Origin: a virus
Taxonomy: Duplodnaviria > Caudoviricetes
IMG/VR virus record: IMGVR_UViG_3300015608_004761
Span: 35,907 to 99,906 of that record
Reading direction: 5' to 3' (one strand)
Length of the DNA stretch: 64,000 nucleotides
Position numbers and translations under genes: made by a program. Below are positions 700-62,695 of this stretch, in pieces (the first letter of the stretch is position 1; each line of letters opens with the position of its first letter). A model generated the notes under the pieces. That model was not told where the DNA came from. It saw only the letters and a list, made by a program, of their open reading frames with translations, and made no database searches.

Positions 700-1719
700 A
701 TGACCGACAACGCCATCGACCTCTACCACGACACCGCCCACGCCACCCTCGGCCGCCTGATTCAGTCCCACCCCGGCAGCACCGAGATGCTGAAGACGGC
801 CGAGTTCGAGGACGACCCGTCCGCCATCCCCGACGGGGCTTTCGCCTGGGGGGCCGAGCGGATGTTCCCGGTGCACACCCCCGAGCACGCGATCGTGAGC
901 GCGCTCTACGTGCGCGAGCAGCCCCAGGTCCCCTCGCACGTCCGGGCCAAGATCGCCGAGGCGCTGGAGGCGTACGGCGTACCCGAGGAGGTCATGCGGC
1001 CCCACGAAGTGAAGGTCGCGGCCGACCCGCAGGACTTCCTCTTCCCCGAGACGGGGACTTACCCCGTGCGCAGCCCCGAGGAGGTCAAGACCGCCGAGCA
1101 GCGTATGATGGAGGAGGCGTGGAAGCTCCCGCTGGAGGAGCGGGTCAAGGTGTTCAACAAGCTCGCGTCGGCCGCCGAGCGGCACGGCGTGACGCTCAAG
1201 CCGGTGGCGCAAGGGTGGGGCCTCGCGGCCTACTCGGCGCCCGAGAAGGTGTTGGAGGCCGTGATCGGCCGCACGCAGATCGTGAAGTCGGCCGAGGACC
1301 GCGTGCCTTACGAGACGATCTCCGAGGTGATCCGCAAGGACCCCTTCTCGCTCAGGGACTACAACGCGCGCGTGAAGCTCGCTTCGACCCTCATGACCCT
1401 CGACAAGAAGGCCGGGATCGAGGGCACCTGGAACCGGAAGGTACCCGACCCGATCCTCTCGGTCTTCAACCGCCCGGCCAAGGTGGGCGCGCGCATGGTG
1501 GTGCTGGGCTCCGAGAGCTACGCCATCGAGCAGCTCGCGGGCCTGCCGGCGAGCTTCTGGGCCGACGCCGTGGGCCCGGAGATGGTGTCGGAGATCGCCC
1601 CCGGCGGTCAGGTGAACCCCGACACCCTCTCCGACATTCTGCCGACGCTGCCCGCGCCGATGTTGCAGAGCGTGGTGCGCAGCCTGCACGCGGCCGGGAT
1701 CAAGCCGAGCGGAGTCTGA
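700..1719 (+). CDS. Hypothetical virion-associated protein with a duplicated F..(P)....(F/Y)PV.(T/S)PE motif and many KxA motifs
   Basis: ATG at 700 after GGAG; FAWGAERMFPVHTPEHA and FLFPETGTYPVRSPEEV; KTA, KVA, KLA, KSA. Confidence 0.7.
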   Translation: MTDNAIDLYHDTAHATLGRLIQSHPGSTEMLKTAEFEDDPSAIPDGAFAWGAERMFPVHTPEHAIVSALYVREQPQVPSHVRAKIAEALEAYGVPEEVMRPHEVKVAADPQDFLFPETGTYPVRSPEEVKTAEQRMMEEAWKLPLEERVKVFNKLASAAERHGVTLKPVAQGWGLAAYSAPEKVLEAVIGRTQIVKSAEDRVPYETISEVIRKDPFSLRDYNARVKLASTLMTLDKKAGIEGTWNRKVPDPILSVFNRPAKVGARMVVLGSESYAIEQLAGLPASFWADAVGPEMVSEIAPGGQVNPDTLSDILPTLPAPMLQSVVRSLHAAGIKPSGV

Positions 1720-2390
1720 TGACCCCCAAGGACGTTCTCCTCGACCCCGGGGCGCCCCCGTCGGCCGTCTGGGCGGCCCTGGGGGCTCTCCTGGGGCTCG
1801 GGATCGAGGTCTGGGAGCCCGAGACCCTCCAGCTCGAAGTAGGGCGCCTGGGGGGCTCCTGGGAGGCCCTGGCGCCCAAGGTCCTGGCAGCTCAGACCGC
1901 GATCGTTTCGCGGGTCTGGACTTACGACTGGGACGCCCTCTTCGCCTTCGCCCTGGCCTGCGAGGGCCAGCCCGCCGCCGCCGACGCCTTCCACCACCCC
2001 ACGGTGCTTCAGCTCGCCTGGGCCGTGCTCGAACTCCAGGAGCTGTGCGGTGCCGAGATCGACGAGCACCACGGCTTCGACCCCGACACGATCGACCCGG
2101 GGGTCGCGGCCCTGCTGCACGACGATGGGTGGGTGCTGGCGCCCGACCCCCTGGGGTTCTGCCAGGGGCACCTGGACCGGATGAACCGCACCAGCGAAAC
2201 GCTCCGCGAGCACGTCCGCGCCGCCTGGACGAAGGTCCGGGACGGCGAGGACGACTCGATACGGCGTATCGCCGAGGCCGCCCCCGAGAACGAGGTGGGC
2301 GTGCAGATCTGCCACTTGGCGGACGCGTGGCTGGAGCTGCGCGCGAGGGCCCGCCGGAGAGCCGTGCTCCTGAATGCTTGCGGTCGATAG
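1719..2390 (+). CDS. Hypothetical protein
   Basis: TGATG coupling at 1717-1721; codon usage. Confidence 0.7.
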   Translation: MTPKDVLLDPGAPPSAVWAALGALLGLGIEVWEPETLQLEVGRLGGSWEALAPKVLAAQTAIVSRVWTYDWDALFAFALACEGQPAAADAFHHPTVLQLAWAVLELQELCGAEIDEHHGFDPDTIDPGVAALLHDDGWVLAPDPLGFCQGHLDRMNRTSETLREHVRAAWTKVRDGEDDSIRRIAEAAPENEVGVQICHLADAWLELRARARRRAVLLNACGR

Positions 2391-4044
2391 TCAAAAAGTA
2401 ACCCTCACCCGATCGGCCTACGCGCAGGCCATCATTCAGTGGGAGGGGAGACCTTTGTCGCTGGACATGTACCCCATGTTCAAGGCGACGTACGACGGGG
2501 ACTACCAGCTCACGGTCTTGAAGACCAGCCGACAGGTCGGCAAGTCCATCCGGCTGATGGTCTACCTGCTGACGGACTCGATCGCCCGCGCGCACTACAA
2601 GTCCCTCTTCGTCACGCCGAGCGAGGGGCAGACCGACAAGTTCTCCAACCTTCGACTCGCGCAGGCCATCCGGTTCTCGCCGCACATCCGGGACAACTTC
2701 ATCGACCCGTCGATGCCGAACGGCGTGCGCATCCGCTCGTTCAACAACGGCTCGTCCATCGTCTGCACCTTCGCCTCGGACAACGCCGACCGCGTGCGCG
2801 GCAACTCGGCCGACCACATCATGATCGACGAGACGCAGGACGTGCTCCTCGACGCCGTGGTGCCCGAGATCCGGGAGGTGCTCTCCGAGAGCAACTACAA
2901 GTACCAGAGCTTCTGCGGCACCCCGAAGACGCTTGAGAACGGCCTGGAGCACCTCTGGAAGAACTCCACCCAGACCGAGTGGGCCATGAAGTGCACCGGG
3001 TGCGGCAAGTACTCGGTGATCGTCTCGGAGAAGCAGCTCGGCAAGCTAGGTCCAATCTGCGGTCACTGCTCGACCTACCTGAACCCGCGCACCGGGATCT
3101 GGGTCGACATGAACCGCAACCCTAACGCCCTCTTCAAGGGGTTCCACGTCTCGCGCCCAATCATGCTGCGTGGCGTGCCTGCCGCCTGGGAGCCCGGGTC
3201 CGACCGGCACCAGAAGGCCATCGTCGAGTGGAAGAACGAGATCCTCGGCAAGCTCGAAGGCCCCCTGTGCTACTCGCTGCCGAAGTTCCGCAATGAGGTG
3301 CTCGGCATCTCGGACTCCGTCGGCACGCGGCTCATCACCGAGGAGATGCTCTGGAACGCGGCCACCGGGCCCGTCATGAGCGACAAGCCCACGCCCGAGC
3401 TCATGCAGGGGATCGTGCGCGTGGCCGCCGGCATCGACTGGTCGGGCGGCGGCGGGGACGGACACTCCTCGACCGTGCTCGTGATCCTGGGCCGCATGCC
3501 CTCCGGCAAGAATCGCGTCCTCTACTTCAAGATCTTCTCCGGTATCCACGCGGCCCAGGAGAACGCCGAGATCCGCGCCATCCTGCGCAACTACGACGTG
3601 AACCAGAACCTCATCGTCGGCGGCGACGCGGGCGAGGGCAACATGAACATGGACATGCTGCGCACGAGCATGCCCAACCCCGCGCGCGTCGCGAAGTTCC
3701 GCTACGTCGGCCCCAACGCCAAGCACTACTGCATGTGGGACAAGGCGCGGAACACGTACATGGTCAACCGCACCAACGCGATCGACTCGTGCATGTCCGC
3801 GTTCCTTCGCAAGGACGTCGAGTTCCCCCGCGAGCCGCGCGCGTACTTGCAGATCGCCTTCAAGCACATCCTCGCGGAGTACGAGGAGGTGACCAGCAAG
3901 GACGGCGGCGGCCGGAAGGTGTGGAGGCACACGCCCGTGGACCCGGACGACTTCCTCCACGCGGTGGTGTTCGCGCGACTGGCGCTCCAGATCGCGAGCG
4001 GCGAGATCAACCTGGGGAGCGCCGTGCCCGGCGAGGACGACTAA
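2374..4044 (+). CDS. terL: Terminase large subunit (ATPase, CxxC pair, RuvC-like nuclease)
   Basis: Walker A SRQVGKS, Walker B IMIDETQD, coupling motif GTP, nuclease GIDW and DDFLHA. Confidence 0.9.
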   Translation: MLAVDSQKVTLTRSAYAQAIIQWEGRPLSLDMYPMFKATYDGDYQLTVLKTSRQVGKSIRLMVYLLTDSIARAHYKSLFVTPSEGQTDKFSNLRLAQAIRFSPHIRDNFIDPSMPNGVRIRSFNNGSSIVCTFASDNADRVRGNSADHIMIDETQDVLLDAVVPEIREVLSESNYKYQSFCGTPKTLENGLEHLWKNSTQTEWAMKCTGCGKYSVIVSEKQLGKLGPICGHCSTYLNPRTGIWVDMNRNPNALFKGFHVSRPIMLRGVPAAWEPGSDRHQKAIVEWKNEILGKLEGPLCYSLPKFRNEVLGISDSVGTRLITEEMLWNAATGPVMSDKPTPELMQGIVRVAAGIDWSGGGGDGHSSTVLVILGRMPSGKNRVLYFKIFSGIHAAQENAEIRAILRNYDVNQNLIVGGDAGEGNMNMDMLRTSMPNPARVAKFRYVGPNAKHYCMWDKARNTYMVNRTNAIDSCMSAFLRKDVEFPREPRAYLQIAFKHILAEYEEVTSKDGGGRKVWRHTPVDPDDFLHAVVFARLALQIASGEINLGSAVPGEDD

Positions 4045-14242: not shown

Positions 14243-15010
14243 ATGAGGGATACAACGTCGCGATACTTCGATGAAGTCAGTCGATTGGAGCTGCCAACGC
14301 AGGCCCAGGAGCGGGCCGGGCTCCTCGACTACTGGCAACTTACGCAGGCCCACGAGCGTGAGACTGACCCCTCCAAGCGCGAGCAGATCGCCCGGCAGCG
14401 CGCCCGGAGGGGCCAGAAGATCGCGGAGGGCTACTTGCGGTTCGTCATCGGGAAGGCACGCGACCGGACACGTGACGAGGACCTCCTTCTGGACTTCATC
14501 GGAGCCGGGAACGAGGGCTTGATGATCGCGATCACCAAGTTCGACCCGGCGTACGACGTACGCTTCCTCACCTACGCCGCCCCGTGGGTGAGGGTGAAGA
14601 TGGACGAGGTGGCTCACCGCCTCGGGACGGTGCACGTCTCGGTCCACCAAAGAAAGCAGTGCATCCAGCGGGGCGAGGAGCCCCCCACGGCCACCCTGAC
14701 GCACGTCGATGACGTGCAACTGGTGTCCCCCTCGGACGTCGAGAGGGAGGCCGTGCCCGAGGGCCGGACGGCGCTCAAGTACCTGAAGCTGACGGGGCTC
14801 TCGCGGCGCGAGCGCGTGATCCTGGTCCTGTCGCTGGGCCTGCGGGGTGACCCGCAGGGCGACGAGGACCTCGCCCTCACGCTCTACTCGCTCGACGGGT
14901 CGATCTTCTGCGCCCCCGAGCTGCGCCGGATCCGCGAGGAGGCGCTGGGGAAAATGCGGCGCTGGGCCGGCGAACACCCCGACGAGGAGATGTTCGCCGA
15001 GCTCAGCTAG
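14243..15010 (+). CDS. Phage sigma70-family sigma factor
   Basis: Region 1.2-like SRYFDEVSRLEL; region 2 YLRFVIGKA..DFIGAGNEGLMIAITKFDP..RFLTYAAPWVR; region 4-like LSRRERVIL..RRIREEALGKMR. Confidence 0.85.
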   Translation: MRDTTSRYFDEVSRLELPTQAQERAGLLDYWQLTQAHERETDPSKREQIARQRARRGQKIAEGYLRFVIGKARDRTRDEDLLLDFIGAGNEGLMIAITKFDPAYDVRFLTYAAPWVRVKMDEVAHRLGTVHVSVHQRKQCIQRGEEPPTATLTHVDDVQLVSPSDVEREAVPEGRTALKYLKLTGLSRRERVILVLSLGLRGDPQGDEDLALTLYSLDGSIFCAPELRRIREEALGKMRRWAGEHPDEEMFAELS

Positions 15011-15013
15011 GGG

Positions 15014-16120
15014 TCAGTCGGCTGACGAGTCCTCGTCGTCGAGGAGCGCCGCCTTCGGCAGCTCCTTGATGCCGGCGGCCTCCTCGTGGCCCCGGAGGCG
15101 GCCCTTCTCGAAGGCGATCTTCTCGGGGTCGGCGTCGCGGGCGCGCAGGTTCTTCACCCGGGTGTCGATCCAGTTGAGGACCTTGCGCTGGTTGATGACG
15201 CCGACGTGCTTCACCTCGACCTTGTCGTAGCCGTGCTGCTTGGGCACCCGCTTGACCGGCTCGCCGCCCTCGCCCGCCCCCGCCTCGGCCTTGGCCGCCT
15301 GCTTGGCCTGCCACGCCTTGACGGCCTCCTTGAGCTGGTCCTCGTCCCAGCCCTTCTCGACGGCGCGGTTGGCGATGGCCGTCTGCGCGTCGTGGTCCTT
15401 GATCGGGCGCAGGGCGCGCGCCGCCGTGACGGTGAGCAGCCCGTCGCGCACGAGCTTCAGGACCGGCTCGGCGAGGTCGAAGATGCCGAGGTACTGGCTC
15501 ACCTTGCCGGGCGACCAGCCGACGCGGCTGGCGATCTGGTCCTGGAGCAGCCCCGAGTCCTTGAGGTTCTTCACTACGACGGCGCTGTCGTAGTGGGTCA
15601 TGCCGGCGCGCGCCTCGTTCTCGAAGTAGGCGTCCTGCACCATCTCGGACCAGTGAGTGTAGTTCTTCACCTTGGCGTTGATGGTCGAGAACTTGTTGAT
15701 GAGCGCGGCGCGCGTGCGGCGGCGGCCGAAGACCAGGACGTAGTAGTCCTCGCCCTTCTTGACGTTCACCCGCAGCTTCGGGTCGGCCGACACCGGCAGC
15801 GACGCGGTCTCGCCCACGTAGCGCATCTTGGTGACGAGCACCGGGGAGGTGATGCCGCCCTTGGTCTGCTCGACGAACTCGTCGATGCTCTGCGAGGTGC
15901 TGCGCACGTCGAAGATCACCAGGAGCTGCTGGGGCTTCACGTCGATCGGCCCCTCCTCGTCAGGCACCGGCTCCCAGTCCTTGAAGACGGCGGCGTAGCC
16001 CGCCTTCTCCTCAGACGCGGCGGACCCGGACGCGGCGGACTTCTTGGCCCGCTTGGACGGCGTCTCCACCGTCTCGTCCTTCTTCTTGCCCTTCTTCTCG
16101 GTCGTATCTTCGGTCGTCAT
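15014..16120 (-). CDS. parB: ParB/Spo0J/KorB-like protein (ParB N-domain plus HTH)
   Basis: YVLVFGRRRTRAA (GxxRxxA-type CTP box), ENEAR, HTH QDQIASRVGWSPGKVSQYL. Confidence 0.85.
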   Translation of the reverse strand: MTTEDTTEKKGKKKDETVETPSKRAKKSAASGSAASEEKAGYAAVFKDWEPVPDEEGPIDVKPQQLLVIFDVRSTSQSIDEFVEQTKGGITSPVLVTKMRYVGETASLPVSADPKLRVNVKKGEDYYVLVFGRRRTRAALINKFSTINAKVKNYTHWSEMVQDAYFENEARAGMTHYDSAVVVKNLKDSGLLQDQIASRVGWSPGKVSQYLGIFDLAEPVLKLVRDGLLTVTAARALRPIKDHDAQTAIANRAVEKGWDEDQLKEAVKAWQAKQAAKAEAGAGEGGEPVKRVPKQHGYDKVEVKHVGVINQRKVLNWIDTRVKNLRARDADPEKIAFEKGRLRGHEEAAGIKELPKAALLDDEDSSAD

Positions 16121-16355
16121 GATCGACTCCTTCCCGCTCCGCGCAGGACAGTTGGTTCAGCTCGCCGCGCAGAATCCGGCGGACCTCGCGCGCGAACTGG
16201 ATGGGGGACACGGACTTCAGGGGCACCGCTTCGAGCGGGCCCCCGACCACGAGGTGCCGGAAAGCCTCGTAGAACTCCTTGGCCACGAGCGCCTCGCTCT
16301 GGGGCGCCACGTAGAGATCCAAAAACAACGAAACGACGATGGCCCTGAACTTCAC
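16011..16355 (-). CDS. Hypothetical protein
   Basis: GTGA coupling with the upstream gene, but overlaps the parB start by about 110 nt. Confidence 0.35.
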   Translation of the reverse strand: MKFRAIVVSLFLDLYVAPQSEALVAKEFYEAFRHLVVGGPLEAVPLKSVSPIQFAREVRRILRGELNQLSCAEREGVDHDDRRYDREEGQEEGRDGGDAVQAGQEVRRVRVRRV

Positions 16356-16579
16356 CGGGTCGGCGAAGAGGTGCTGCTCCCTGGCGGCGCCTCGAAAGGC
16401 GCGGTCCCGCAGTTCGCGCAGCGAACCGATGAGCACTGAGACGTCGGCGGAAGGATCGGACCTCGACACTTTGGGCATGTCGGCGGTTCTGCCACGCCCT
16501 CCGTACGCCGTAAAGCGGACGAAGCGGAGGCTTCTACCCGCTTGTCCTCGATATTCGTGACGACGCCGTACTTCTCCAC
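16352..16579 (-). CDS. Small zinc-ribbon protein
   Basis: CPKC..CANCGT; GGAG RBS. Confidence 0.6.
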   Translation of the reverse strand: MEKYGVVTNIEDKRVEASASSALRRTEGVAEPPTCPKCRGPILPPTSQCSSVRCANCGTAPFEAPPGSSTSSPTR

Positions 16580-21333: not shown

Positions 21334-24300
21334 ATGAGCGAGCCGACGCCCATCCTCACCGACGCCTCCCACATCCGCGAGCGGATTCGGGAGAAAGCGA
21401 TCCAGACCGCGTACGCCGTATTCCCCCTGGAGGCCCAGGGGCGGAAGCTGGAGATCGAGGATGTCCACGTCCGCAACGAGCGTTACAGCCCGGTGCGAGA
21501 GGCGCGCGCGCTCATGACCGACGGGACGCTGTCCGAGGCGATGCGCGGGACGCTCGTTCTGCGCGACAAGGACGGCACGGTGCTCGACCGGGCCAAGAAC
21601 TTCACCATCGCGCACCTGCCGTACTTCACCGACCGCCACACGGTGATCGCGAACGGCAACGAGTACCAGATCGCGAACCAGCTCCGCAGGAAGCCCGGGG
21701 TCTACACGGCGCGCGCGGACAACGGGGAGCTCCGGGCCATCTTCAACCTGGGCCGTGGGAAGAACTTCGACCTCGGGTTCGAGCCCAACAAGGGCACCTT
21801 CCACCTCGCCTACGGCACGAGCAACATCCCGCTTTACCCAGTGCTGCGGGCGCTGGGCGTCTCACACCAGACGATCGCCGACCAGTGGGGAAAGGGTGTC
21901 GCGGACGCGAACCACACCGCCCACGGCCATCAGACCGAGAAGGCCGTGGCGAGTCTCTACGCCAAGGTCGAGCACCCGGTGGTGATGAACCCGAACCTGC
22001 CGCACGCCGAGAAGGTGACGGCGCTCCAGAGGAAGTACGACCAATCGACGCTCGACCCGCGCGTGACCGAGGCGACGCTCGGGGTGGCCTGGGATAAGGT
22101 GACGCCGCAGGCGCTCATCGGTGCGGCCAAGAAGGTGCTGGCCGTCCACAACGACAAGGCGCAGGTCGACGACACCGACTCGCTCACCTTCAAGACTTTC
22201 CACTCGATCGACGACTTCATCGCCGAGCGCATGCGCCTGACGGCCCGCGCGTGGGTCCCCGCCGCCAAGCGCGCCTTGAACGGCAAGACCAACATCCGCG
22301 AAGCCCTGCGCCCGGCGCCCTTTTCGGACGGGCTGCGCAAGTGGGTCACGACCTCGTCGCTCTCGGCCGTGCCAACGGGCATCAACCCGCTGGAGATGCT
22401 CGACCACGCCGTCAAGGTGACCTCGCTCGGCGAGGGCGGGATCCCCAGCGATCGCGCGATCCCGCTGGACGCGCGCATGATCCACAACACACACATCGGC
22501 GCGCTCGACCCGATTCGCACGCCGGAGTCGAACCATTCCGGGGTCGACATCCGGGCGACCCTGGCCGCGCACCGCGACAAGGAGGGCAACCTCTACACCG
22601 TCGTCAAGAACGTCAAGACCGGCAAGGAGGAGTTCCTCCGGTCGGGCGAGCTGCGCAAGCACGTCCTGGCCTTCCCCGGCGAGGACCTGCGCGGGCACGT
22701 GGACGCCTTCGTCGGCGGCAAGGTCGAGCGGGTGCCCGGTGATAAGGTCACCCACCAGCTCCTGCACACCGCCCACACCTACTCGCCCGCGACGACGCTG
22801 ATCCCCATGATCCACTCGATCCAAGGCAACCGCGCCATCATGGGGTCCAAGATGGGCACCCAGGCGCTGCCGCTGCTGGAGCGCGAGGCGCCGTACGTCC
22901 AGGTCCGCTCGCACCTGCCGGGCGGAGAGAGCTTCGAGACCGTCTACGGCCACATGTTCGTGCCGCGCGCGACGGTGAGCGGGACGGTGAAGAAGATCGA
23001 GGACGGCTGGATCTACATCAAGCCGGACAAGGAGCACGAGAAGAAGTCCGAAGTTCGCCGTGAGGATGACGACGTCGACGCGGACGGGGTGAAGGTCGCC
23101 GCCGAGGACGACGGGCTCGTCAAGGTGCCCTACCAGACGCTCTTCCCGTTCCCCTCCAAGACCTACCTGCACCACGAGCTCTCGGTGAAGCCGGGCGACA
23201 AGGTGCAGGAGGGTCAGCGCCTGGGCGAGTCGAACTACACCCGCAAAGGCACCCTCGCCCTCGGCAAGAATCTGCTCGTGGCCTACATGCCGTACTACGG
23301 CCTGAACTCCAACGACGCCGTCGTGATCTCGGAGGGTTGCGCGAAGAAGCTGACCTCTGAGCACATGTACCGCGAGGTCTACGCGCTGAACCCGCAGATC
23401 GAGCTCTCGCGCGAGAAGCACCGGATGTACTTCGGCAACAAGTACACCCGCGAGCAGTACGGCGTACTCGACGAGACGGGCGTCGTGAAGAAGGGCTCGC
23501 GAGTCCACCCGAAGGACCTCCTGGTCGCCGGGCTCACCAAGACCCAGGTGCTGGGCACGGACGCGCTCCTCGGGCGCATCTCCAAGAGCCTCGCCAAGCC
23601 CTACCAGGAGGTGACGCTCTCCTGGACCCACGGCACCCCGGGCGAGGTCGTGGACGTGGTGCGCACGGCCACGCAGATCGCCATCCTCGTGCGCACCCAC
23701 GAGCAGATGCAGGTCGGCGACAAGCTCTGCTACGACGAGCAGACGGAGGTTCTAACCGACCACGGGTGGAAGCACTTCGACTTGCTGGACCCCTTGACGG
23801 ATCGTGTGGCGAGCCTTGAAGGCGGGGCCCTCCGTTACGTGGAACCCGAAGCGTACCATCGGTACGCGCGCGGGGGTCGCATGTACGCCGTCTCGTCGCA
23901 ACAGCTCGACCTGTTCGTAACGGACCACCACGGGATGTACGTTCAGCGGCGCGGCGAGACCGAGTTCGCCTTGCGGCCGGCGGAAGACATCGCCGGCCAG
24001 CGGGTTCGATACAAGAAGGACGCGGACTGGCAGGGCGAGACGCCCGACCACGTGGTCTTCCCTTCGCTCACCGTCGCCGCAGGGCAGGGGGGGCGTGGGT
24101 CTCGCGTGCTGACCCCGCTGCGCATGCGAACGGACGCCTACGCCATGCTGCTGGGCGCGTACCTGTCGGAGGGGAACCTCGTCGATCAACCCGAGAGCGG
24201 CAGCTACGGGATCGACATCACGCAGATCAAGGAGCCCAACCGGGCGCGACTGCTCACGGAGCTCCGCCGCCTGGGGCTCAAGTTCAACGAGCACGGGCGC

Positions 24301-26910
24301 GGAACGAAGGTACGCCTCTACTCGAAGCAGATCCTGGAACACTTCCGCCAGTTCGGGCACAGCCACGAGAAGTTCATCCCCCCGTACGTTTTCGATTGGG
24401 ACCGGAACACGCTGCGGATCCTTTTCGACTGGCTGGTGTGGGGAGACGGGAGCGTGGCCAACGGCCGTCCCGTCTCGTACACGACGACGTCACCGCGTCT
24501 CGCCGACGACGTACAGCGGCTGTGCCTTCACGTCGGATTCGCGGGCAACGTGAAGCGGAAGAAGCACCACCCGCGTCAAACGATCAAGGGCGAAGAGTAC
24601 GATTGCCGCCCATGCTTCGACGTCCGAATCGTGACGACCAAGCTGCATCCCCAGGTCAACCACGGACACGCAACGTCGCAGAAGGCTCAACGCGAAGGGT
24701 TCGTTCCCGATTACGAATCCCCAGTCTTCTGCGTAACGGTACCTTCGGGGGTGATCTACGTCCGGCGCAACGGAAAGGGGGTGTGGTCCGGCAACTCGGG
24801 TCGCTACGGGAACAAGGGCGTCGTCGCCAAGATCCTGCCGGACCACGAGATGGTTCAGGACTCGAAGGGCCGCCCCATCGACCTCCTGCTCACCTCGGCG
24901 GGCGTCGTCTCCCGCATCAACCCCGCGCAGGTCATCGAGACGGCCGTGGGCAAGGTCGTCGAGAAGACGGGCAAGCCCATCGTCTTCGACAACAACGCGC
25001 GCGTCAACGCCGTCGAGTGGGCCAAGGGGCTACTGCGCGAGCACGGCGTCTCGGACAAGGAGCACGTCTACGACCCGCTCCAGAAGCGACGCATCGAAGG
25101 CCCGGACGGCAAGGGCGTGCTCGTCGGCCGGCAGTTCATCTACAAGCTCTTCAAGTCGACGGACACGAACTTCGCCGCCCACGGCGTGGGCCCCTACGAC
25201 TTGAACCAGCAGCCGCTCAAGACCGGCGGCGACGACTCGGCCAAGGGCCTCGGCAAGATGGAGTTCGACGCGCTCATCGCCCACAACGCGCGCAACTTCC
25301 TGCGCGAGGCGGCGACGGTGAAGGGTCAGAAGAACGACGAGTTCTGGAAGGCCCTCCAGCTCGGCATGCCGCTGCCCGCACCGAAGAGCCCCTTCGCGTT
25401 CCAGAAGTTCGTCGGGATGCTCGAAGGGGCAGGGCTCCGCGTGGACAAGCGCGGCTCGAAGATGAAGCTCCTGCCCATGACGGACCGGGACGTCCTCGCC
25501 CGGTCGCGCGGGCCCATCGAGAACTCCAAGACCCTCATCGCCAAGAACCTGAAGCCCGAGACCGGGGGGCTGTTCGACCCGCGCCTGACGGGCGGCCCCC
25601 AAGGCACGCTCTACGCGCACATCGACCTGCACGAGCCGATCCCGAGCCCCGTCTTCCAGGAGCCCGTGCGGCGCCTGCTGGGCCTGACGGGCAAGGAGTT
25701 CGACCGGAAGCTCGCCGAGCACGGCGGGCAATGGTTCCACGCCGAGCTCAAGGCCATGGACGTGGGGGCCAAGATGCGCGCGCTCCAGGGCCAGCTCGCG
25801 AAGGCCAAGGGCGCCGAGCTCAACGACGTCGTCAAGCAGATCAAGTACCTGAAGGCCCTCCAGGCCGAGAAGATGGCACCCCACGAGGCGTACATGATCT
25901 CCAAGGTGCCGGTGATCCCGCCCGTGTTCCGCCCGATCGTGACCCAGCCGGGCGACAGCTCGCAGGTCTCGATCGGGGACGCGAACAAGCTCTACGGGCA
26001 CCTCATGGACTCCAACGACACCCTGAAGGCGACGGCCCTGGAGAGCGACCGGGGTAAGCACCGCCAGCAGGTCTTCAACGCCGTGGCCGCGCTCTACGGC
26101 ACCGAGGACGTGGCGAACGACGAGCTGCGCGGGCAGTCCGTCAAGGGGTTCCTCTCGAACATCGCCGGAGTGGGCACGCCGAAGGGCGGGTTCTTCCAGC
26201 GCAAGCTCATGCGGCGCACGCAGGACGTGTCGGGTCGCGGCACGGCCGTCCCGGACGCCAACCTCGGCATGGACCACGTCGGCATGCCCGAGCCGATGCT
26301 CTGGGGCATGTACGACAAGATGATCGTCGCGCGGCTCGTGCGGCAGGGCTACCCGGCGCTGGAGGCGCGCGAGCGCGTGACCAAGCGGGACCACGTGGCG
26401 CGCGAAGCGATGCTGGCCGAGACGCGCGAGCGCCCGGTGCTCATCAACCGGGCGCCGACGCTCCACCGATGGTCGATCGTGGCGGCCTACCCAGTGCCCG
26501 TCCAGGGGAAGACCATCCGCGTGAACCCCTTCATCGAGAAGGGCATGAACCTCGACTACGACGGCGACACCTTGCAGGTCCACGCGCCCATCACGCACGA
26601 CGCGATCGAGGACGCCCGCAAGATGACCCTGTCGCAGATGCTCCTGGCCGACCAGACGCACTCACGCCTCATGGCCTTCCCGCAGCACGAGGCGATCATC
26701 GGCTTCACCCACGCCTCCAAGGCCGTGGCCTCGGGCGCGAAGCCCCGCGAGTTCGCCTCGGCCGACGAGGCGGTGAAGGCGTGGCGCCGGGGAGAGATCA
26801 AGCTGAACGATCCCGTGACGCTCAAAGGGACCAAGACCGCCTCCGAGCAGGACCCAGACACGAACCTCACCCGCCTGCTATCCTGGCTGGAGAGCCAACC
26901 CGATGGATGA
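21334..26910 (+). CDS. Phage RNA polymerase: beta subunit fused to the N-terminal half of beta', interrupted by an intein
   Basis: Beta motifs PIRTPES, NRAIMGSKMGTQA, LGKNLLVAYMP, GDKL/SGRYGNKGVV, GVVSRIN, QQPL..GKME; beta' motifs GGLFD, VIPPVFRP, DVSGR, NRAPTLHR, catalytic NLDYDGD. Confidence 0.92.
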   Translation: MSEPTPILTDASHIRERIREKAIQTAYAVFPLEAQGRKLEIEDVHVRNERYSPVREARALMTDGTLSEAMRGTLVLRDKDGTVLDRAKNFTIAHLPYFTDRHTVIANGNEYQIANQLRRKPGVYTARADNGELRAIFNLGRGKNFDLGFEPNKGTFHLAYGTSNIPLYPVLRALGVSHQTIADQWGKGVADANHTAHGHQTEKAVASLYAKVEHPVVMNPNLPHAEKVTALQRKYDQSTLDPRVTEATLGVAWDKVTPQALIGAAKKVLAVHNDKAQVDDTDSLTFKTFHSIDDFIAERMRLTARAWVPAAKRALNGKTNIREALRPAPFSDGLRKWVTTSSLSAVPTGINPLEMLDHAVKVTSLGEGGIPSDRAIPLDARMIHNTHIGALDPIRTPESNHSGVDIRATLAAHRDKEGNLYTVVKNVKTGKEEFLRSGELRKHVLAFPGEDLRGHVDAFVGGKVERVPGDKVTHQLLHTAHTYSPATTLIPMIHSIQGNRAIMGSKMGTQALPLLEREAPYVQVRSHLPGGESFETVYGHMFVPRATVSGTVKKIEDGWIYIKPDKEHEKKSEVRREDDDVDADGVKVAAEDDGLVKVPYQTLFPFPSKTYLHHELSVKPGDKVQEGQRLGESNYTRKGTLALGKNLLVAYMPYYGLNSNDAVVISEGCAKKLTSEHMYREVYALNPQIELSREKHRMYFGNKYTREQYGVLDETGVVKKGSRVHPKDLLVAGLTKTQVLGTDALLGRISKSLAKPYQEVTLSWTHGTPGEVVDVVRTATQIAILVRTHEQMQVGDKLCYDEQTEVLTDHGWKHFDLLDPLTDRVASLEGGALRYVEPEAYHRYARGGRMYAVSSQQLDLFVTDHHGMYVQRRGETEFALRPAEDIAGQRVRYKKDADWQGETPDHVVFPSLTVAAGQGGRGSRVLTPLRMRTDAYAMLLGAYLSEGNLVDQPESGSYGIDITQIKEPNRARLLTELRRLGLKFNEHGRGTKVRLYSKQILEHFRQFGHSHEKFIPPYVFDWDRNTLRILFDWLVWGDGSVANGRPVSYTTTSPRLADDVQRLCLHVGFAGNVKRKKHHPRQTIKGEEYDCRPCFDVRIVTTKLHPQVNHGHATSQKAQREGFVPDYESPVFCVTVPSGVIYVRRNGKGVWSGNSGRYGNKGVVAKILPDHEMVQDSKGRPIDLLLTSAGVVSRINPAQVIETAVGKVVEKTGKPIVFDNNARVNAVEWAKGLLREHGVSDKEHVYDPLQKRRIEGPDGKGVLVGRQFIYKLFKSTDTNFAAHGVGPYDLNQQPLKTGGDDSAKGLGKMEFDALIAHNARNFLREAATVKGQKNDEFWKALQLGMPLPAPKSPFAFQKFVGMLEGAGLRVDKRGSKMKLLPMTDRDVLARSRGPIENSKTLIAKNLKPETGGLFDPRLTGGPQGTLYAHIDLHEPIPSPVFQEPVRRLLGLTGKEFDRKLAEHGGQWFHAELKAMDVGAKMRALQGQLAKAKGAELNDVVKQIKYLKALQAEKMAPHEAYMISKVPVIPPVFRPIVTQPGDSSQVSIGDANKLYGHLMDSNDTLKATALESDRGKHRQQVFNAVAALYGTEDVANDELRGQSVKGFLSNIAGVGTPKGGFFQRKLMRRTQDVSGRGTAVPDANLGMDHVGMPEPMLWGMYDKMIVARLVRQGYPALEARERVTKRDHVAREAMLAETRERPVLINRAPTLHRWSIVAAYPVPVQGKTIRVNPFIEKGMNLDYDGDTLQVHAPITHDAIEDARKMTLSQMLLADQTHSRLMAFPQHEAIIGFTHASKAVASGAKPREFASADEAVKAWRRGEIKLNDPVTLKGTKTASEQDPDTNLTRLLSWLESQPDG
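23728..24795 (+). mobile_element. 356-aa intein with LAGLIDADG homing endonuclease
   Basis: Starts CYDEQTEVLT, block B VTDHH, LAGLIDADG boxes LGAYLSEG and WLVWGDG, ends WSGN before Ser; removal restores GDKLSGRYGNKG. Confidence 0.92.
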
Positions 26911-27385
26911 CTTCCCTGCCGACATCGACGGAATGCTGAAGGCCGCCGAGGACCCGGAGCCGGAGCCCGACCCCGTGCCGGGCCTCGTGCGCAAGCTCCT
27001 CTCCGTCAAGTACGCCGTACTGCTGGCGTACGTGAGCTACGGCGACCAGCTCCGGGGCGCGAACCGCGACGGGCTCTACGAGCACTTCCAGGAGCACGTG
27101 AAGGACGAGCGCCGCTCGATCTACGAGTTGAACCGTCACCTCGCCTCGCGGGGGGAGGTGCACGTGCCGCACAACGTCACCATCCCCGAGGTCGAGCTCG
27201 GGGGCCCGGTGCCGCTCCTCGGCGTGCTCCTCCAGTTCGAGGAGGCCGCCCTCGAAGCGTGGCGCGAGCTCTTCCGCGCGATCCCGCCGAACAAGAACGT
27301 GGGGCTCTCGGGCTTCGCGCAGAACGGCGCGCAAGCCCAGCTCGCCCACGTCGAGGACCTGCGTCGCTGGGGGGCCCGGTCGTGA
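26903..27385 (+). CDS. Ferritin/Dps-like four-helix-bundle protein
   Basis: FQEHVKDERR, EEAALEAW, HVEDL pattern. Confidence 0.55.
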   Translation: MDDFPADIDGMLKAAEDPEPEPDPVPGLVRKLLSVKYAVLLAYVSYGDQLRGANRDGLYEHFQEHVKDERRSIYELNRHLASRGEVHVPHNVTIPEVELGGPVPLLGVLLQFEEAALEAWRELFRAIPPNKNVGLSGFAQNGAQAQLAHVEDLRRWGARS

Positions 27386-32165: not shown

Positions 32166-32189
32166 CCCGCCTACGCTAGGGTCGAGGCC

Positions 32190-34709: not shown

Positions 34710-34717
34710 CCACCCCC

Positions 34718-35461: not shown

Positions 35462-35472
35462 CCTATTCGACG

Positions 35473-36276: not shown

Positions 36277-37648
36277 GCTCTACGACCGCATGCGCGTCAA
36301 GGAGGCGGGCCTCGCCTCGCGGGGCGCGGGGTGGGTGCGCAACGCCTTCTCGGGGATGCGCAACGGCGCCGCCGGGGCCGCGCACGCCGTCGAGAGCGCG
36401 GCGGCGCACGCTCACCCCGTCTCGCCGTCCGGCAGCACCGGGGTTCTGGCCCCCGTGTCGACGGCCCTCCATGCTCCCCCCATGGCACCCGGCGGCCGTC
36501 CCGTCGTGCCGCACGCCGACGTGCGCGCCATGCTCCCGCCGGGTGAGGCGATCCACCTCCCGCCGGACGTGCATCTGCCGAGCGCGGCACCCGCCACGGC
36601 TCCCTCGACGGCCGCCCCCGCCGCCTCCGCGCCCGCTGCCGCGCCCGCTGCCGCCCCCGCCGCGCCTTCGCCGGCCCCTGCGACCGGTGCGCCTGCGGCC
36701 CCCAGTACGCCGTACGAGCACCTCGCCCACGGCGCCCGTGGGCTCGCCCAGCAGGGCTGGCAGGGGGCCCAGGCGTGGGGGCAGCAGGCCGGGCAGCTCG
36801 GCAGGCAAGCCGCCCCCTGGGTCGGGGGCGCGGCGGCCGTGGGCGCGGGCGGCTACGCTCTCTCGCGCGCCGGTCGTGGCGCGGACGAACAGGAGGCTCG
36901 CATGCACGACTACGCCGCCAACTCACACCATCAGATGCCGCAGCCCATGCCCGGGATGAGCGTGTACGCGAGTTACGAGGCGTTCGGCGCCGAGAAGCTG
37001 GCCGAGCTACTTGCCGCGCTCAAGCACACCTTCAACGCAGGCGACAGCGCGTCTCGCGCGCTCATCACGCCCGTCCACGAGGCCAAGACGCTCTACTCGC
37101 GCATCCAGGGCGAGCAGACCGAGCACGAGCCGCACACCGCACGCACACTCCGCGAGATGGTCGGCGCTGGGAAGGAAGTGGCCGACTCCGTGAAGAATCA
37201 TCCCTTCGTGCGGGGCTACTACCGCAAGGGTGAGGAAAAGGTGGCCGAGCAGCCCCCGCGCTTCGACGTGCTGACGCCCACGCACAACGCCTTCGCCGTG
37301 GAGTTCGGCAAGGCGCTCGCCAACAAGTTCGTCACCGACCCGATCGACGGGATCCACCGGATCCTGAAGAAGAAGATCGTCGAGGACCCGAAGGCCATGT
37401 CGACCTTCTACGGCGTCATCGAGAGCGACCCCGAGCTCCAGCGCCACTACTCGGAGAACCCCGATCAGGTCCACGACACCTTCAAGGCCCTGCGGCGTTT
37501 CGGGCCTTCGATGGCGGCCTCCCCCGCCGTCGTGCGCAGCTTCCTCCGTCAGTCGATGATGGCAGGCGGGAACATGGACTTCGCCACGATCCGCATGCTC
37601 GCGGAGACCGAGAAGTTCATCCAGAACAGCCGAGGGCAGGGCAAGTGA
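36266..37648 (+). CDS. Hypothetical virion protein (KxA motifs, Pro/Ala linker, Gly-rich helix)
   Basis: KEAG, KLAE, KVAE. Confidence 0.7.
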   Translation: MSSELYDRMRVKEAGLASRGAGWVRNAFSGMRNGAAGAAHAVESAAAHAHPVSPSGSTGVLAPVSTALHAPPMAPGGRPVVPHADVRAMLPPGEAIHLPPDVHLPSAAPATAPSTAAPAASAPAAAPAAAPAAPSPAPATGAPAAPSTPYEHLAHGARGLAQQGWQGAQAWGQQAGQLGRQAAPWVGGAAAVGAGGYALSRAGRGADEQEARMHDYAANSHHQMPQPMPGMSVYASYEAFGAEKLAELLAALKHTFNAGDSASRALITPVHEAKTLYSRIQGEQTEHEPHTARTLREMVGAGKEVADSVKNHPFVRGYYRKGEEKVAEQPPRFDVLTPTHNAFAVEFGKALANKFVTDPIDGIHRILKKKIVEDPKAMSTFYGVIESDPELQRHYSENPDQVHDTFKALRRFGPSMAASPAVVRSFLRQSMMAGGNMDFATIRMLAETEKFIQNSRGQGK

Positions 37649-37869
37649 AGATCCCCGTCTCCGACACGCTCAAGAACGCGCTCGTGCGCGAGGGCTCCTG
37701 GAAGATCGCGGCCGAGGTTCGGCGTCGCGCGGGCGGGGTCGCCCCCACGGACCCCACCCTGGAGAACTTCGCCGTCGCGCGCGGGTTCAAGGCCGCCGCC
37801 GACCACTCCGACGAGGACGTGATCGACGAGGGGCTCGAAGCCTACCGCCGCATCCTGGAGGCGCCGTGA
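37645..37869 (+). CDS. Hypothetical small protein
   Basis: GTGA coupling on both sides. Confidence 0.65.
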   Translation: MKIPVSDTLKNALVREGSWKIAAEVRRRAGGVAPTDPTLENFAVARGFKAAADHSDEDVIDEGLEAYRRILEAP

Positions 37870-38897
37870 CGAACGCGTACGCCGTACGGCGGGCCTGGGA
37901 GGCGATGAAGACGGCGGCCCTGCGCGGGGGCGCGCCGCTCGTCCCCGCCATGTCTCTCGCCGCGATCGAGAAGTGGGCCGAGATCGAGGGGCCGACGGCC
38001 CACGGCCTGTCGCGCCCGGAGCGCGAGGCGTGGGCGGCGAGCGTCGCGGGCGCGGCCATGGTCGACGCGGCGATCGAGAAGCTCGCCGAGGCCGGTCGCT
38101 ACACCGAGGCCGAGCGGGAGTTCCTGCTCGACCTGAACGCCGAGGCGGCGGTGCGCGACCTCCGGTCCCTGTGCAAGTCGGCCGGCATCCTCGGCAACGC
38201 CCTGAACGCCATGGCCGCCCACCCCCGCACCACCGGCACGATCGCCGGGGCCGCGATCAGCGGCGGTCTCGGGGCCTGGAAGGACGACGAGAACCGCCTG
38301 CGCGGGGCCGTGAGCTACGGCGTGCCGGGCGCGGTCCTCGGCTACCTGGGCGGAACGGGCCTCGCCAACTACCAGCAGAACCGGCACATGGCGCGCCTGC
38401 ACCACGCGACCCAGCTCCTCGAGCAGCAGGCCGCCCAGCAGGCGCAGAGCCTCGCCAACCAGCGCGCGCTGGCCGACATGGGCCGCGTGGCGGACGACGC
38501 GGCGCGCCTGCACAAGAACTTCATCCTGGCCGCCCAGGGGATGGCGCGCGACCGAAACGTCGACCCGAACAAGGTCCAGGCGATCACGCACGCGATCGAC
38601 AAGCTCCAGGACCACAGCCACGACATCATCCAGCACGCGGTCATCAACCCGGGGATGCTACACACCGAGGTGGCGAACATGATCGACCCAGAGATCCTGA
38701 AGGAGATCCAGGGCCGCGCCGCGCACCTCCAGAAGCAGGGCCCGTACGTGCCGCTCGGCTCGCGCCTGCACCCGGACGACCTCATCGCCGCCGCCCAGGC
38801 CCACAGCCGGTCGAGCTTCGGCGGCGGCAAGGGCGGCCAAGGCGCGGCGCCCGGTGGCTCCCCCGCTCCAGCGCCCGGGACCGCGCCGACCCCGTAA
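37866..38897 (+). CDS. Hypothetical virion protein with glycine-zipper-like segments after KSAG
   Basis: KTAA, KWAE, KLAE, KSAG; GTIAGAAISGGLG. Confidence 0.7.
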   Translation: MTNAYAVRRAWEAMKTAALRGGAPLVPAMSLAAIEKWAEIEGPTAHGLSRPEREAWAASVAGAAMVDAAIEKLAEAGRYTEAEREFLLDLNAEAAVRDLRSLCKSAGILGNALNAMAAHPRTTGTIAGAAISGGLGAWKDDENRLRGAVSYGVPGAVLGYLGGTGLANYQQNRHMARLHHATQLLEQQAAQQAQSLANQRALADMGRVADDAARLHKNFILAAQGMARDRNVDPNKVQAITHAIDKLQDHSHDIIQHAVINPGMLHTEVANMIDPEILKEIQGRAAHLQKQGPYVPLGSRLHPDDLIAAAQAHSRSSFGGGKGGQGAAPGGSPAPAPGTAPTP

Positions 38898-38906
38898 CCT
38901 TCCCCC

Positions 38907-40700
38907 GTGCGCAAGCTCCTCGAACTCGACCAGTACTTCCCCAAGACGGGGGAGCCGACAGTGCAACTGGCGGCCTTCGCCAACCAGCGCGGCGGCCTCT
39001 CGATCGAGAAGCGAGCCTTCGCCGAAGGTCACTCGCAGTTCTATGACTTCCTGAAGACCGTCCAGCCCGAGCCGGGGATCACCTACCTGCTCGTGAACGC
39101 GATGGGCTCATGGGAGTACTACGACCTGAACCGCAACGCGGACGGCTTCCCCGAGCGGGCGTACATGGTCGGCACGCGCGCCAAGTGCGGCCACCCCGAC
39201 TGCACGCTGAGCCTGGACGGCTGGGTGAGCGAGCCCGAGACGCTCGTCCACCACTACAAGACCTTCGAGGAGTCGGGCGGCATCTACCGCCACCACAAGA
39301 ACGACGACCCCTCCAAGAGTCGCGGGACGGTGAAGCCCGCCCTGTGGAACGCCCGGATGCACCGGGTGGAGCTGCTCCTCCGGTACGTGAACTCCCGCGA
39401 CCCGGAGATCCCCTCCAAGATCGCCGACGGGGTGTTCCCGGCCGTCTCGATGGGCTGCCGCGTCGCCTACGACGTGTGCACAATCTGCGGCCACCGGGCG
39501 CCCACGCGCGCGCAGTACTGCTCGCACGCCCTCAGTCAGATGAACGCGATCCTCCCAGACGGGAGGAAGGTCGGGGTGCTGAACCCACGGCCCCGGTTCT
39601 TCGACATCTCGTTCGTCTTCCGACCCGCCGACCCGACGGGCTGGACGCTCCAGAAGGTCGCGCGCCACGGCGGCATGTCGTCGGCCGAGCTCGGCGAGCT
39701 GATGGACCGCGCGGAGGGCTCGCGCCTGCCGTTCTGGTCCACGGCCAAGGAGATCAACGCCTCCTGGGACGAGCCGGGGAGCTTCATGGGACGCTTCGTG
39801 CGCGGGTCGTTCCCGAGCGGGAAGGTGGCCGGCGCACCCTCGACGCTCCTGGAGCTGGCCGCCTCGCCCGTCCCGCACCCCCAGTCGCTCGTGGCCAAGC
39901 TCGCCTCCCAGGCCCTCGGGATCCCGCTCACCGACGACATGGTCGACCGACTCGTGTGCGCGACCCCGGCCCTCGTCGCCCTGGTCGGCGAGTCCTCGGA
40001 GACCGTCAAGCACGCCTCCTTCGGCGAAGCCGGCGACGTCCTCCGAGACCGCGCCTACGCCCCCTGGCCCGACGTGCCGAGCGTGGACGTGGGCCCCGGC
40101 GCCCTGCACCGGGCGGCCGAGCCCCCGCGCACGGACCTGCTCACGATGACCGACCCCTTCACGGGGGCTGTCTACCAGACGACGCGCGGAGCGGCCCAGG
40201 ACGCGACGCGGGAGGACGTGAAGAAGCGGCTCCTGAACACCGCCCTCCTCACGGGCCTCTACGCGGCGGGCCTGCACAAGGCGCTCAAACCGACGGGCCT
40301 CGGGGGCCTCGGACGCGCGGCCGTCGCGTTGCCGGTGGGAGCACTCCTCGGCCGGGCGACCGAGCGCGGTATCCACAACGTCCTCGAACCCTACCGACAC
40401 CCGTACTACCAGACCGACCAGGGCGTCCCCGTCTCCGGGGGCACCGAGTTCAAGGCGGCCTCGATCGAGCCCTCCTCCTGGGCGCGAAAGCTCGCCTCGG
40501 ACCTGGAGGAGCGCGACGCCGCCCGCGCCCGGATCGCCCGGCGCGGGGGGCACCGATTCTTGAAGTGGGCCGCGAGCCCCTTGGACCTCCAGGTCCGCTC
40601 ACTCGCCGGGGAAGACCGCGCCCCCGAGGAGCCGTACGCCGTACGACCCGACGACGCCCGCGACATGGCCGAGCGTCTGACGTTCCTGCTGACCACCTAA
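38907..40700 (+). CDS. Prohead maturation serine protease (HK97/assemblin-like) with Zn finger and long C-terminal extension
   Basis: His region YRHHKN..SRGTV, Ser motif VSMGC, CTIC..YCSH, FFDISFV..PAD; upstream of the capsid genes. Confidence 0.7.
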   Translation: MRKLLELDQYFPKTGEPTVQLAAFANQRGGLSIEKRAFAEGHSQFYDFLKTVQPEPGITYLLVNAMGSWEYYDLNRNADGFPERAYMVGTRAKCGHPDCTLSLDGWVSEPETLVHHYKTFEESGGIYRHHKNDDPSKSRGTVKPALWNARMHRVELLLRYVNSRDPEIPSKIADGVFPAVSMGCRVAYDVCTICGHRAPTRAQYCSHALSQMNAILPDGRKVGVLNPRPRFFDISFVFRPADPTGWTLQKVARHGGMSSAELGELMDRAEGSRLPFWSTAKEINASWDEPGSFMGRFVRGSFPSGKVAGAPSTLLELAASPVPHPQSLVAKLASQALGIPLTDDMVDRLVCATPALVALVGESSETVKHASFGEAGDVLRDRAYAPWPDVPSVDVGPGALHRAAEPPRTDLLTMTDPFTGAVYQTTRGAAQDATREDVKKRLLNTALLTGLYAAGLHKALKPTGLGGLGRAAVALPVGALLGRATERGIHNVLEPYRHPYYQTDQGVPVSGGTEFKAASIEPSSWARKLASDLEERDAARARIARRGGHRFLKWAASPLDLQVRSLAGEDRAPEEPYAVRPDDARDMAERLTFLLTT

Positions 40701-40721
40701 CATTCCGACGGAGACCTCCCG

Positions 40722-41180
40722 ATGAACCTGAGCAGCCTCTTCCCCAACACCCAGACCAAGATCGCCGCCGTCGCGCCGGCCGCGACCTCCCAGGGCGACA
40801 ACGCCGCCAGGGCCCGCGCCGAGATCGACGCGGCGCTTCAGGCGACGACCCTGAAGACGGCCGGCGTCCAGGCCCCTCCCCACGCCGCGCCCGCCGCCGG
40901 CCCCACTGGGGACCTGGAGAAGGTCGCCGAGGAGATCAAGAAGGCCAACCACGAGCGGCGCGTCCGTGAGGCGTTCGCCGAGGGCGAGGCGCACTGCGAC
41001 GGCTTCATGAGCCGCCTCGCGCTCTACGAGAAGGTCGCGGCTGAGCAGGCTCCCTGGCAGCCGGCGAACCAGAAGACCGCCGCCGAGCACACCGAGCAGG
41101 AGGTCGTGACGCAGATCCACAAGGTCGCCAGCGCCCACTACCTGGAGGGGTACGGCGCGGCGAGGATGGCGCTCCAGTGA
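40722..41180 (+). CDS. KxA-rich scaffold-like protein
   Basis: KIAA, KTAG, KVAE, KVAA, KTAA, KVAS in 152 aa. Confidence 0.65.
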   Translation: MNLSSLFPNTQTKIAAVAPAATSQGDNAARARAEIDAALQATTLKTAGVQAPPHAAPAAGPTGDLEKVAEEIKKANHERRVREAFAEGEAHCDGFMSRLALYEKVAAEQAPWQPANQKTAAEHTEQEVVTQIHKVASAHYLEGYGAARMALQ

Positions 41181-50266: not shown

Positions 50267-50304
50267 CGCTGTACGGCGTACTCCGAGGCGCGTAGCTTCG
50301 AGTC

Positions 50305-56784: not shown

Positions 56785-56816
56785 GTCCTGTCGAGAATAC
56801 GCCGTACCCTAACCGC

Positions 56817-61677: not shown

Positions 61678-61772
61678 GAAGGCCACCCTACGCCGATCAT
61701 CCGTACCGGCCAAGGTGCGGGCCAAACAAGCAGAACGCTTGCCACCCCGTCGATCGACGGGGTGTGAGTCAC

Positions 61773-62072
61773 TCAGGGTTCCCAACAGTCACTGCACGTC
61801 GAGAAACGAAGCACCCATAGGAGCCCGTTCGTGAGCATCCCCGGTTCAACCTCGTTGTCGTTGTGCTCCTGCGGCTCGTCGTAACGGACCTTGTCGGTCG
61901 CTTGCAGCCGACCGACGTAGGTGTCCCTCGGACCGCCGCACTTGTCGCAGACGATCTCGACGTTGACCCGCTCAACCGGGGCCGGGACGGTGGTGTCGGA
62001 TGTAGTCGTCAGTTCCATAGGTTCCTCCACATCCTTATATCCGCCCAGGGAGGGCGGTTTAGGAGGGGTCAC
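61773..62072 (-). CDS. Hypothetical CxxC..CxxC protein
   Basis: CDKC..CSDC. Confidence 0.5.
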   Translation of the reverse strand: MTPPKPPSLGGYKDVEEPMELTTTSDTTVPAPVERVNVEIVCDKCGGPRDTYVGRLQATDKVRYDEPQEHNDNEVEPGMLTNGLLWVLRFSTCSDCWEP

Positions 62073-62695
62073 CCGTGGTGGTGCCTGCGGTGGTGCCTGC
62101 GGTGGTGATGGCTCGGGGGAGGCTCCTCCTGACCCCCGCCCATGGCGTAGGAGGCCATCATCGGCTGGGTGAAGTGCATGGCCGGGTAGGCGATCCGCTG
62201 GCGGGCGGCGTCCAGCGCCTCCTGCTGCGCGCGCGAAGCCTCGAAGGCGTCGAAAGCCGCCCCGAGGCTCGGAAGGTACTGGTTGACGAAAGCGGCGGCG
62301 GCACCCTTCAGGAACCGAGCAGCCGTCTTCTCGGCCTGCTCGCGGTCCTGTCGTTCCTTCTTGCGCTTGTAGGCGTCACGGGCTTCGCGGTTGCGCTGGG
62401 ACGCGCTCGGGGTGAGCATCCCCTTGTGCTGCCAGATGGCCTTGATCCCGATGAACGGGTCGAAGGCCACCTTCTCGGCCTGGGGCGCCGGGATGCCCAG
62501 GCGCTCATACAGCTCCTCGTGCGTCCAGGGCCGGTTCTGTGCGTGGGGCCACGCGTACGAGATCACGTCGCGCGCCACGTCCGGGTTTACGGCGTACGCC
62601 CGCCGGAGCACGGCCAGACGGCCCTGGATGTGCTCGTACGGCTGGATCTTGTCGGCGAGCGAGAACTCGCCGACCCCGAGGTCGAGCGGCGTCAC
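62069..62695 (-). CDS. KxA-motif protein with a His/Arg-rich C-terminus
   Basis: EKVAF, EKTAA, HHHRRHHRRHHHG. Confidence 0.6.
   Translation of the reverse strand: MTPLDLGVGEFSLADKIQPYEHIQGRLAVLRRAYAVNPDVARDVISYAWPHAQNRPWTHEELYERLGIPAPQAEKVAFDPFIGIKAIWQHKGMLTPSASQRNREARDAYKRKKERQDREQAEKTAARFLKGAAAAFVNQYLPSLGAAFDAFEASRAQQEALDAARQRIAYPAMHFTQPMMASYAMGGGQEEPPPSHHHRRHHRRHHHG

Follow-up and report, generated by a model that had tools for sequence, protein, structure and literature searches.

Why would a tailed phage carry the same short palindrome every few kilobases along its genome, for the most part inside genes? The question is raised by the last 64 kb (hereafter, the window) of the 99,906-bp virus record IMGVR_UViG_3300015608_004761, which is estimated to be 58% complete. 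In the window, 28 copies of the palindrome TACGNCGTA form an evenly spaced array, or lattice, between positions 973 and 62596. Comparison of this phage with its relatives indicates that these sites are under selection as DNA, that the gaps between them are capped, that individual sites turn over and that the array is associated with a parB gene. The palindromes are probably the binding sites of the phage's own KorB/Noc-like orphan clamp of the ParB family.

Clamps of this family are known to function in partition (parS), nucleoid occlusion (Noc) and silencing of plasmid genes (KorB). Orphan ParBs of lytic phages have been surveyed without sites (PMC12704722). No paper on this lattice was found in the open-access literature.

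A palindrome under selection at the DNA level

Recounting reproduced the 28 copies reported in the first-pass annotation, as well as their central bases (C in 15, G in 8, T in 3 and A in 2) and flanks (a purine on the 5′ side and a pyrimidine on the 3′ side, each in 27 of 28). The consensus is RTACGNCGTAY and the site of this phage, written out, is GTACGCCGTAC. The window sites, which have no strand, start at positions 973, 2260, 5711, 7488, 11325, 11425, 14552, 16504, 17031, 18761, 21412, 23458, 27011 and 29447 in the first half of the array and at 32645, 32832, 36706, 37878, 40635, 41536, 44117, 46534, 48125, 50272, 53930, 56798, 59901 and 62588 in the second half; 16 further copies upstream bring the whole 99.9-kb contig to 44. 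Markov models of order 2 to 5 predict 0.6-1.7 copies of TACGNCGTA in the window, the 11-mer RTACGNCGTAY is found 26 times compared to 0.01 in dinucleotide shuffles, and TACGNCGTA is the top-ranked spaced word of the whole genome record. The array is real, strong and family-wide.

Most of the contig sites (37 of 44) are located within coding sequences, and the remaining 7 are intergenic, compared to 5% intergenic DNA. Three of the window sites are intergenic (16504-16512, 50272-50280 and 56798-56806), whereas only the latter two had been recorded originally. The proposal that selection acts on the DNA rather than on the protein withstood the codon-preserving shuffles that had been suggested as a check: the 37 coding copies compare with 0.82 +/- 0.87 under synonymous-codon resampling. 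These copies use the rare codons GTA, CGT, AGT and ATA, of which GTA accounts for 59 of the 2,386 valine codons. All three reading frames are used, as had been claimed, but unevenly (23, 3 and 11 copies), with the Y-x-V frame dominant.

This dominance is the kind of trace that a codon or peptide preference might leave, and the palindromes could also be a by-product of mutation bias, HIP1-like methylation or an assembly artefact. The counts and spacing largely refute readings of this kind, which we give almost no credence. Apart from the resampling result and the rare codons, the inner 4-mers of the palindrome are not enriched, neither N6/N4 (PF01555) nor C5 (PF00145) methylases were found in five records, and genomes from independent assemblies show the pattern again, with an evenness beyond random, which a neutral process would not produce. 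The central base shows no strand bias.

Some sites stand in special arrangements. Overlapping tandem sites at 7-bp steps are found in this phage (two, G000:C1:33919-33934) and in a close relative (three, G001:C1:104996-105018). Upstream of the window, the sites at G000:C1:337, 2415 and 9373 are at the centres of larger inverted repeats (CCCC/CCCG...CGGGGG) beside A- or T-rich runs; these repeats resemble terminator hairpins, and two of them (337 and 9373) are part of a duplicated cassette.

Even but non-periodic spacing

For the 44 contig sites, the mean gap is 2.27 kb and the largest is 3,874 bp, with a coefficient of variation (CV) of 0.44 (P<5e-6 against random placement). The impression that the placement is tighter than random was correct, given that none of 200,000 random placements was equally even. 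Short gaps and long gaps are both scarce. A fixed period was rejected (best periodogram amplitude, 0.38); the pattern is that of a capped gap, with the cap at about 4 kb. The evenness holds against a null based on near-match positions and against a one-site-per-gene null (P<=5e-5), so that explanations by sequence opportunity or by one site per gene were rejected as well.

Variation of the palindrome and turnover of sites in related phages

Portal-anchored searches yielded 164 loci, and 18 further records were read whole or nearly so; the comparison set consists of the ParB-bearing records longer than 50 kb (n=18, including the record of this phage, G000). Close relatives possess the same motif, with 90 sites in G001 (complete, 186.8 kb; CV 0.53) and 101 sites in G002 (CV 0.54). 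More distant lineages have their own palindromes of one design, namely TTTAC-N3-GTAAA (the commonest form in the family, TTTACGNCGTAAA), TTCAC-GNC-GTGAA, TTTCC-N3-GGAAA and TTAACC-N-GGTTAA. A clear family palindrome is present in 14 of the 18 long records, in 10 of which it is evenly spaced at P(CV)<0.002; mean gaps among the evenly spaced records are 1.7 to 8.3 kb, and the family genomes contain 24-101 sites each.

Between G000 and G001, the aligned genes of which share 56% amino-acid identity, 13 sites are common while 21 and 17 are private, and the encoded residues are often altered. What is conserved between relatives is the spacing; most individual sites move. Local replacement of lost sites was rejected, given that new G001 sites are no closer to G000 sites than random. 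The evenness and this turnover with kept spacing support the original notion of a dimeric protein with sites all along the genome. No lattice was seen in the ParB-less relatives, that is, the phages Arash (complete) and D69 (50 kb), G022 (the same as locus L062), L143 and L164.

The TTCAC and TTTCC arms of the relatives' palindromes recall the half-sites of parS and NBS (PMC7383237). The phage might accordingly mimic a signal of the host chromosome that is read by a host protein (a host ParB, a Noc- or SlmA-like protein or a Chi-like protection system), and differences between hosts could then account for the lineage-specific versions. This explanation appears quite improbable: the 3-bp spacer mismatches the spacer-less parS and NBS, and, as an indirect check for enrichment in a host chromosome, 31 Gemmatimonadota genomes, among them a metagenome-assembled genome with a contig of the family, contain 0-6 copies per Mb, similar to a reversed control, vs about 400 per Mb in the phage.

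An orphan ParB as the candidate binder

The proposed binder is a 368-amino-acid protein encoded on the minus strand at positions 15014-16120 that, by profiles, sequence and fold, is assigned to the ParB/Noc/KorB family. It consists of a disordered N-terminal tail, a cytidine triphosphatase (CTPase) domain (R73, G132-R135, E167-N168), a helix-turn-helix (HTH) domain at about 193-235 and a predicted C-terminal dimerisation region at 291-359. The protein clears the cut-offs of TIGR00180 (61.6 vs 58.45) and PF17762 (52.5 vs 22.6), and its best PDB matches, by sequence and by fold alike, are Spo0J, Noc, ParB and KorB. The CTP-box residues (box I Arg, GxxR and EN) are present; among 51 homologues, R73, G132, R135 and N168 are invariant, and V207-S208-Q209 of the recognition helix and R235 are nearly so. 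The two-copy model scores 0.69, vs 0.00 for the best control, with the interface at 291-359, a predicted local distance difference test score (pLDDT) of at least 79 and at least 64% of contacts shared between runs. Of 30 solved homodimers, 20 reach the mark for a dimer, as does 1 of 23 single chains. The model supports dimerisation through 291-359, although the pass may reflect likeness because the protein's own alignment was used and ParB dimers have already been solved.

The parB gene occupies the same slot (SNF2 - small open reading frame (ORF) - parB - sigma) in 83 of the 87 loci that cover it; slot loci without parB are those of Arash, L062/G022, L143 and L164. Co-occurrence with the lattice, the slot, a site at the operon (see below) and the relatives' palindromes give good support to the choice of this ParB among the candidates of the first-pass annotation, the other of which, an HTH-like protein (34718-35461), has no Pfam or NCBIfam match. 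No cultured phage with a close ParB was found.

Several observations weigh against this assignment. Three records (G010, G014 and G023) encode ParB without a detectable lattice and in a fourth (G007) the lattice is weak, whereas in G008, G012, G013 and G021 the palindrome is present but its evenness is not significant with exact patterns. Of the five comparators that lack ParB, four are partial, and the relationship to Arash and D69 is distant. The site class tracks phylogeny whether the ParB or the portal tree is used, and hence covariation does not single out ParB; a test for discordance, in which the motif would track ParB rather than the portal, was uninformative since no discordance was found. 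Spacing varies from 1.7 to 8 kb across relatives and therefore does not point to one common sliding range. Finally, the canonical glutamate of the GERR motif is an arginine in most family members, which makes the use of CTP an assumption.

The equal fit to the portal tree and the three ParB-positive records lacking a lattice could also be accommodated if another phage protein, for instance the small ORF product, the terminase, a virion protein that organises or ejects DNA, or a nicking nuclease, read the sites in packaging, DNA entry or recombination, and many family proteins are without annotation. We consider this rather unlikely, given that the terminase, portal, polymerases and small ORF are all retained in the relatives without a lattice, where ParB is the gene that is missing, and that a site is fixed at the parB operon.

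With respect to specificity, the residue at position 201 (G201/R201) sets the choice between parS and NBS (PMC7383237). The equivalent position of the phage ParB is Asn in L105 and L034, whose sites have an inner C, and the next residue is Lys in 6 of 7 loci of the non-TAC type and in 0 of 39 of the TAC type. That residues at this position vary with the site class is suggestive only. The ParBs of G010 and G014 (in a clade with L084, L079, L133 and L168), which have no detectable lattice, are on a long branch and contain an altered recognition helix; this clade possibly lost or changed its specificity.

The parB operon and its fixed site

Directly upstream of parB, on the same strand, is the gene of a conserved, small, all-helical protein (16011-16478, minus strand), the frame of which runs 110 nt into parB; the protein is about 115-120 amino acids long in relatives. 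More widespread than parB, it is present in 93 of the 97 loci with ParB and in 3 loci without it. The small protein has no Pfam family; its atlas matches are below 0.9 and the best fold Z is 5.6, compatible with a new or a known fold.

The intergenic site at 16504-16512 precedes the small ORF by 26 nt and parB by 392 nt. In this phage, and in 13 relatives whose ParBs are 27-73% identical to its own, the centre of a site is found 376-388 bp upstream of parB; the relatives' sites are displaced by no more than 12 nt. The fixed site is mostly missing in the TTTAC- and TTCAC-type lineages. In this phage, it belongs to a conserved element (16490-16538, minus strand) of the form GGTAGAAG-N18-ctt(site)-N9-TGGCA, which would be the promoter of the small-ORF/parB operon, and the site is a candidate operator through which the operon would be autoregulated. 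The sequence GGTRNAAG, at 16531-16538 (minus strand), also occurs at several places in G001 and G002, about 30-60 nt before leftward genes, and is likely to be a phage promoter element.

The location of one site within a promoter-like element, the sigma factor gene next to parB, the excess of intergenic sites and the precedent of KorB (PMC13768133) are all compatible with a mainly transcriptional purpose of the same ParB binder. The clamps would slide to promoters or block elongation, silencing or timing gene classes, possibly with the small upstream protein as a clamp-locking partner, similar to KorA or TrbA for KorB. Such a purpose is less likely than a coat on the phage DNA, with something like one chance in three once ParB is accepted as the binder and about one in four overall. 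The great majority of the sites are coding and their proximity to gene starts is only borderline (P=0.064), the sites move freely between relatives whereas the OB positions are kept between RK2 and R751, and three loci without ParB have retained the small protein.

A possible clamp coat on the phage genome

After binding its palindrome, a dimer of the ParB type is closed by CTP and slides until it is released (PMC13768133, PMC8429893). Applied to the lattice, this biochemistry suggests the following scheme. Selection on the DNA keeps the sites and caps the gaps. The ParB dimer would read the two half-sites with its HTH domains, as suggested by the co-occurrence, the operon position and the design of the sites. 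The site together with CTP would close the clamp, which would then slide off and be released on hydrolysis, such that each site feeds a limited stretch. Because the sliding range of a clamp is limited, sites would be needed every few kb to cover a genome of 170-200 kb. Long gaps would be selected against whereas redundant sites would decay, yielding the even, non-periodic spacing and a nearly continuous coat on the DNA during infection. The positionally fixed site would repress the small-ORF/parB operon and thereby set the dosage of the clamp.

If ParB is the binder, there is about an even chance that the coat marks or organises the phage DNA as self (through compaction, a replication compartment or shielding from nucleases) rather than functioning in partition. 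Partition, which the first-pass annotation had listed as segregation among the possible roles, is unlikely for the lattice: no ParA (PF13614) and no integrase were found in 12 family records (this phage and 11 relatives, 10 of the 12 at least 90% complete), and none of 74 family ParBs contains a ParA-binding motif, although a ParA supplied by the host might conceivably be used. The broader proposition that, throughout this widespread family of 170-200 kb RNA-polymerase phages, a ParB CTP clamp serves as a whole-genome coat for self-marking, condensation or shielding from host defences is more tentative, and we would put it at perhaps one chance in three. If true, such a coat would be the analogue of a phage nucleus without the shell, and of base modification without the chemistry. 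The scheme is directly testable: dozens of genomes offer a candidate protein together with a precise site, naturally occurring variants of specificity and a putative operator. Moreover, with gap length rather than position under selection, the lattice would provide an evolutionary read-out of the working range of a clamp.

The phage and its possible host

The genome is that of a large, uncultured tailed phage, which encodes a terminase, DNA polymerase A and an SNF2 helicase, together with two sigma factors and a multi-subunit RNA polymerase in split form. The RNA polymerase (21334-29396, plus strand), which is family context for the lattice only, includes Rpb2 and Rpb1 domains, with beta fused to the N-terminal part of beta' (21334-26910) and the C-terminal part of beta' encoded separately (27597-29396); its catalytic motif is NLDYDGD. 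A LAGLIDADG-like domain in the first of these genes is a probable intein, and a ferritin-like gene (26903-27385) is located between the two. One sigma70-type factor (14285-15010, plus strand) is convergent with parB and contains the lattice site 14552. With its encoded beta and beta' subunits, the phage resembles the tailed mReC phages (PMC7481178) and may be called mReC-like. The capsid and portal show distant kinship with Salmonella phage Arash and Vibrio phage D69. Probable virion proteins (700-1719, 30249-41180 and 62692-63453) contain repeated K-[T/I/V/L/E]-A motifs, which are possibly protease cleavage sites. One family locus encodes a class II (B12) ribonucleotide reductase, NrdJ (L002:11916-14723, minus strand), whose nearest named cellular homologues are from Polyangiaceae/Myxococcales, a weak hint of a host in Myxococcota.

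Comparison with known systems

KorB and its OB sites on the IncP plasmid RK2 combine, like the proposed phage system, a clamp of the ParB family with many sites around the replicon (PMC13768133, PMC11790492). The OB sequence TTTAGC(G/C)GCTAAA and the commonest family site are alike in length (a 13-bp palindrome), odd centre and TTTA/TAAA arms (PMC13768133), and in both cases a site is associated with the clamp's own operon (OB at korA; here, by proposal, at the parB operon). The OB sequence itself is not matched, the letters being RTACGNCGTAY in this phage and TTTACGNCGTAAA in relatives. The phages differ further in being tailed viruses with their own RNA polymerase, in which no IncC/ParA was found and no KorA-like partner was identified, in the density of sites (one per 1.7-8 kb vs 12 per 60 kb on RK2) and in the turnover of positions under a maintained spacing, in contrast to the conserved positions of OB.

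Noc of Bacillus is likewise an orphan ParB paralogue with sites (NBS) scattered over the replicon and local spreading (PMC8429893, PMC7383237). The phage ParB, however, is far under the cut-off of the Noc profile TIGR04285 (61 vs 315 bits), and the phage sites possess a 3-bp spacer and are much denser. An N-terminal amphipathic helix is not apparent in the phage ParB, the first 30 residues of which are charged and disordered (pLDDT about 48). Chromosomal ParABS shares the CTPase-HTH-dimer layout and related half-site letters but differs by its ParA and ParA-binding motif, neither of which was found here, and by sites clustered at the origin or centromere instead of genome-wide.

Among phages, the 17-bp dyad repeat of Corndog (Cluster O mycobacteriophages) is comparable in having more than 30 sites (34) with a 3-bp spacer in a lytic phage genome, some of them within genes, and Corndog has no integrase or parAB; the orphan ParB+HTH protein gp90 was listed among three candidate binders (PMC4351075). 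The N-terminal half of gp90 (L317:19424-20932), which contains the ParB CTPase and HTH, matches the ParB profile of the present family at 1e-29 and thus is a candidate binder for these unexplained repeats in a growable phage. The Corndog repeats differ in sequence, belong to an unrelated phage, are mostly intergenic or near gene starts and crowded in the right arm, and lack even spacing (CV 1.06, largest gap 9.2 kb, P=0.77). The stoperators of Cluster A mycobacteriophages are also numerous dispersed sites for a phage protein (as described in PMC4351075) but are asymmetric, oriented with transcription and found in temperate phages, whereas the lattice is palindromic. Overall, the lattice falls outside ParABS, KorB proper and Noc and, in the way it would work, is most like KorB/OB and Noc/NBS.

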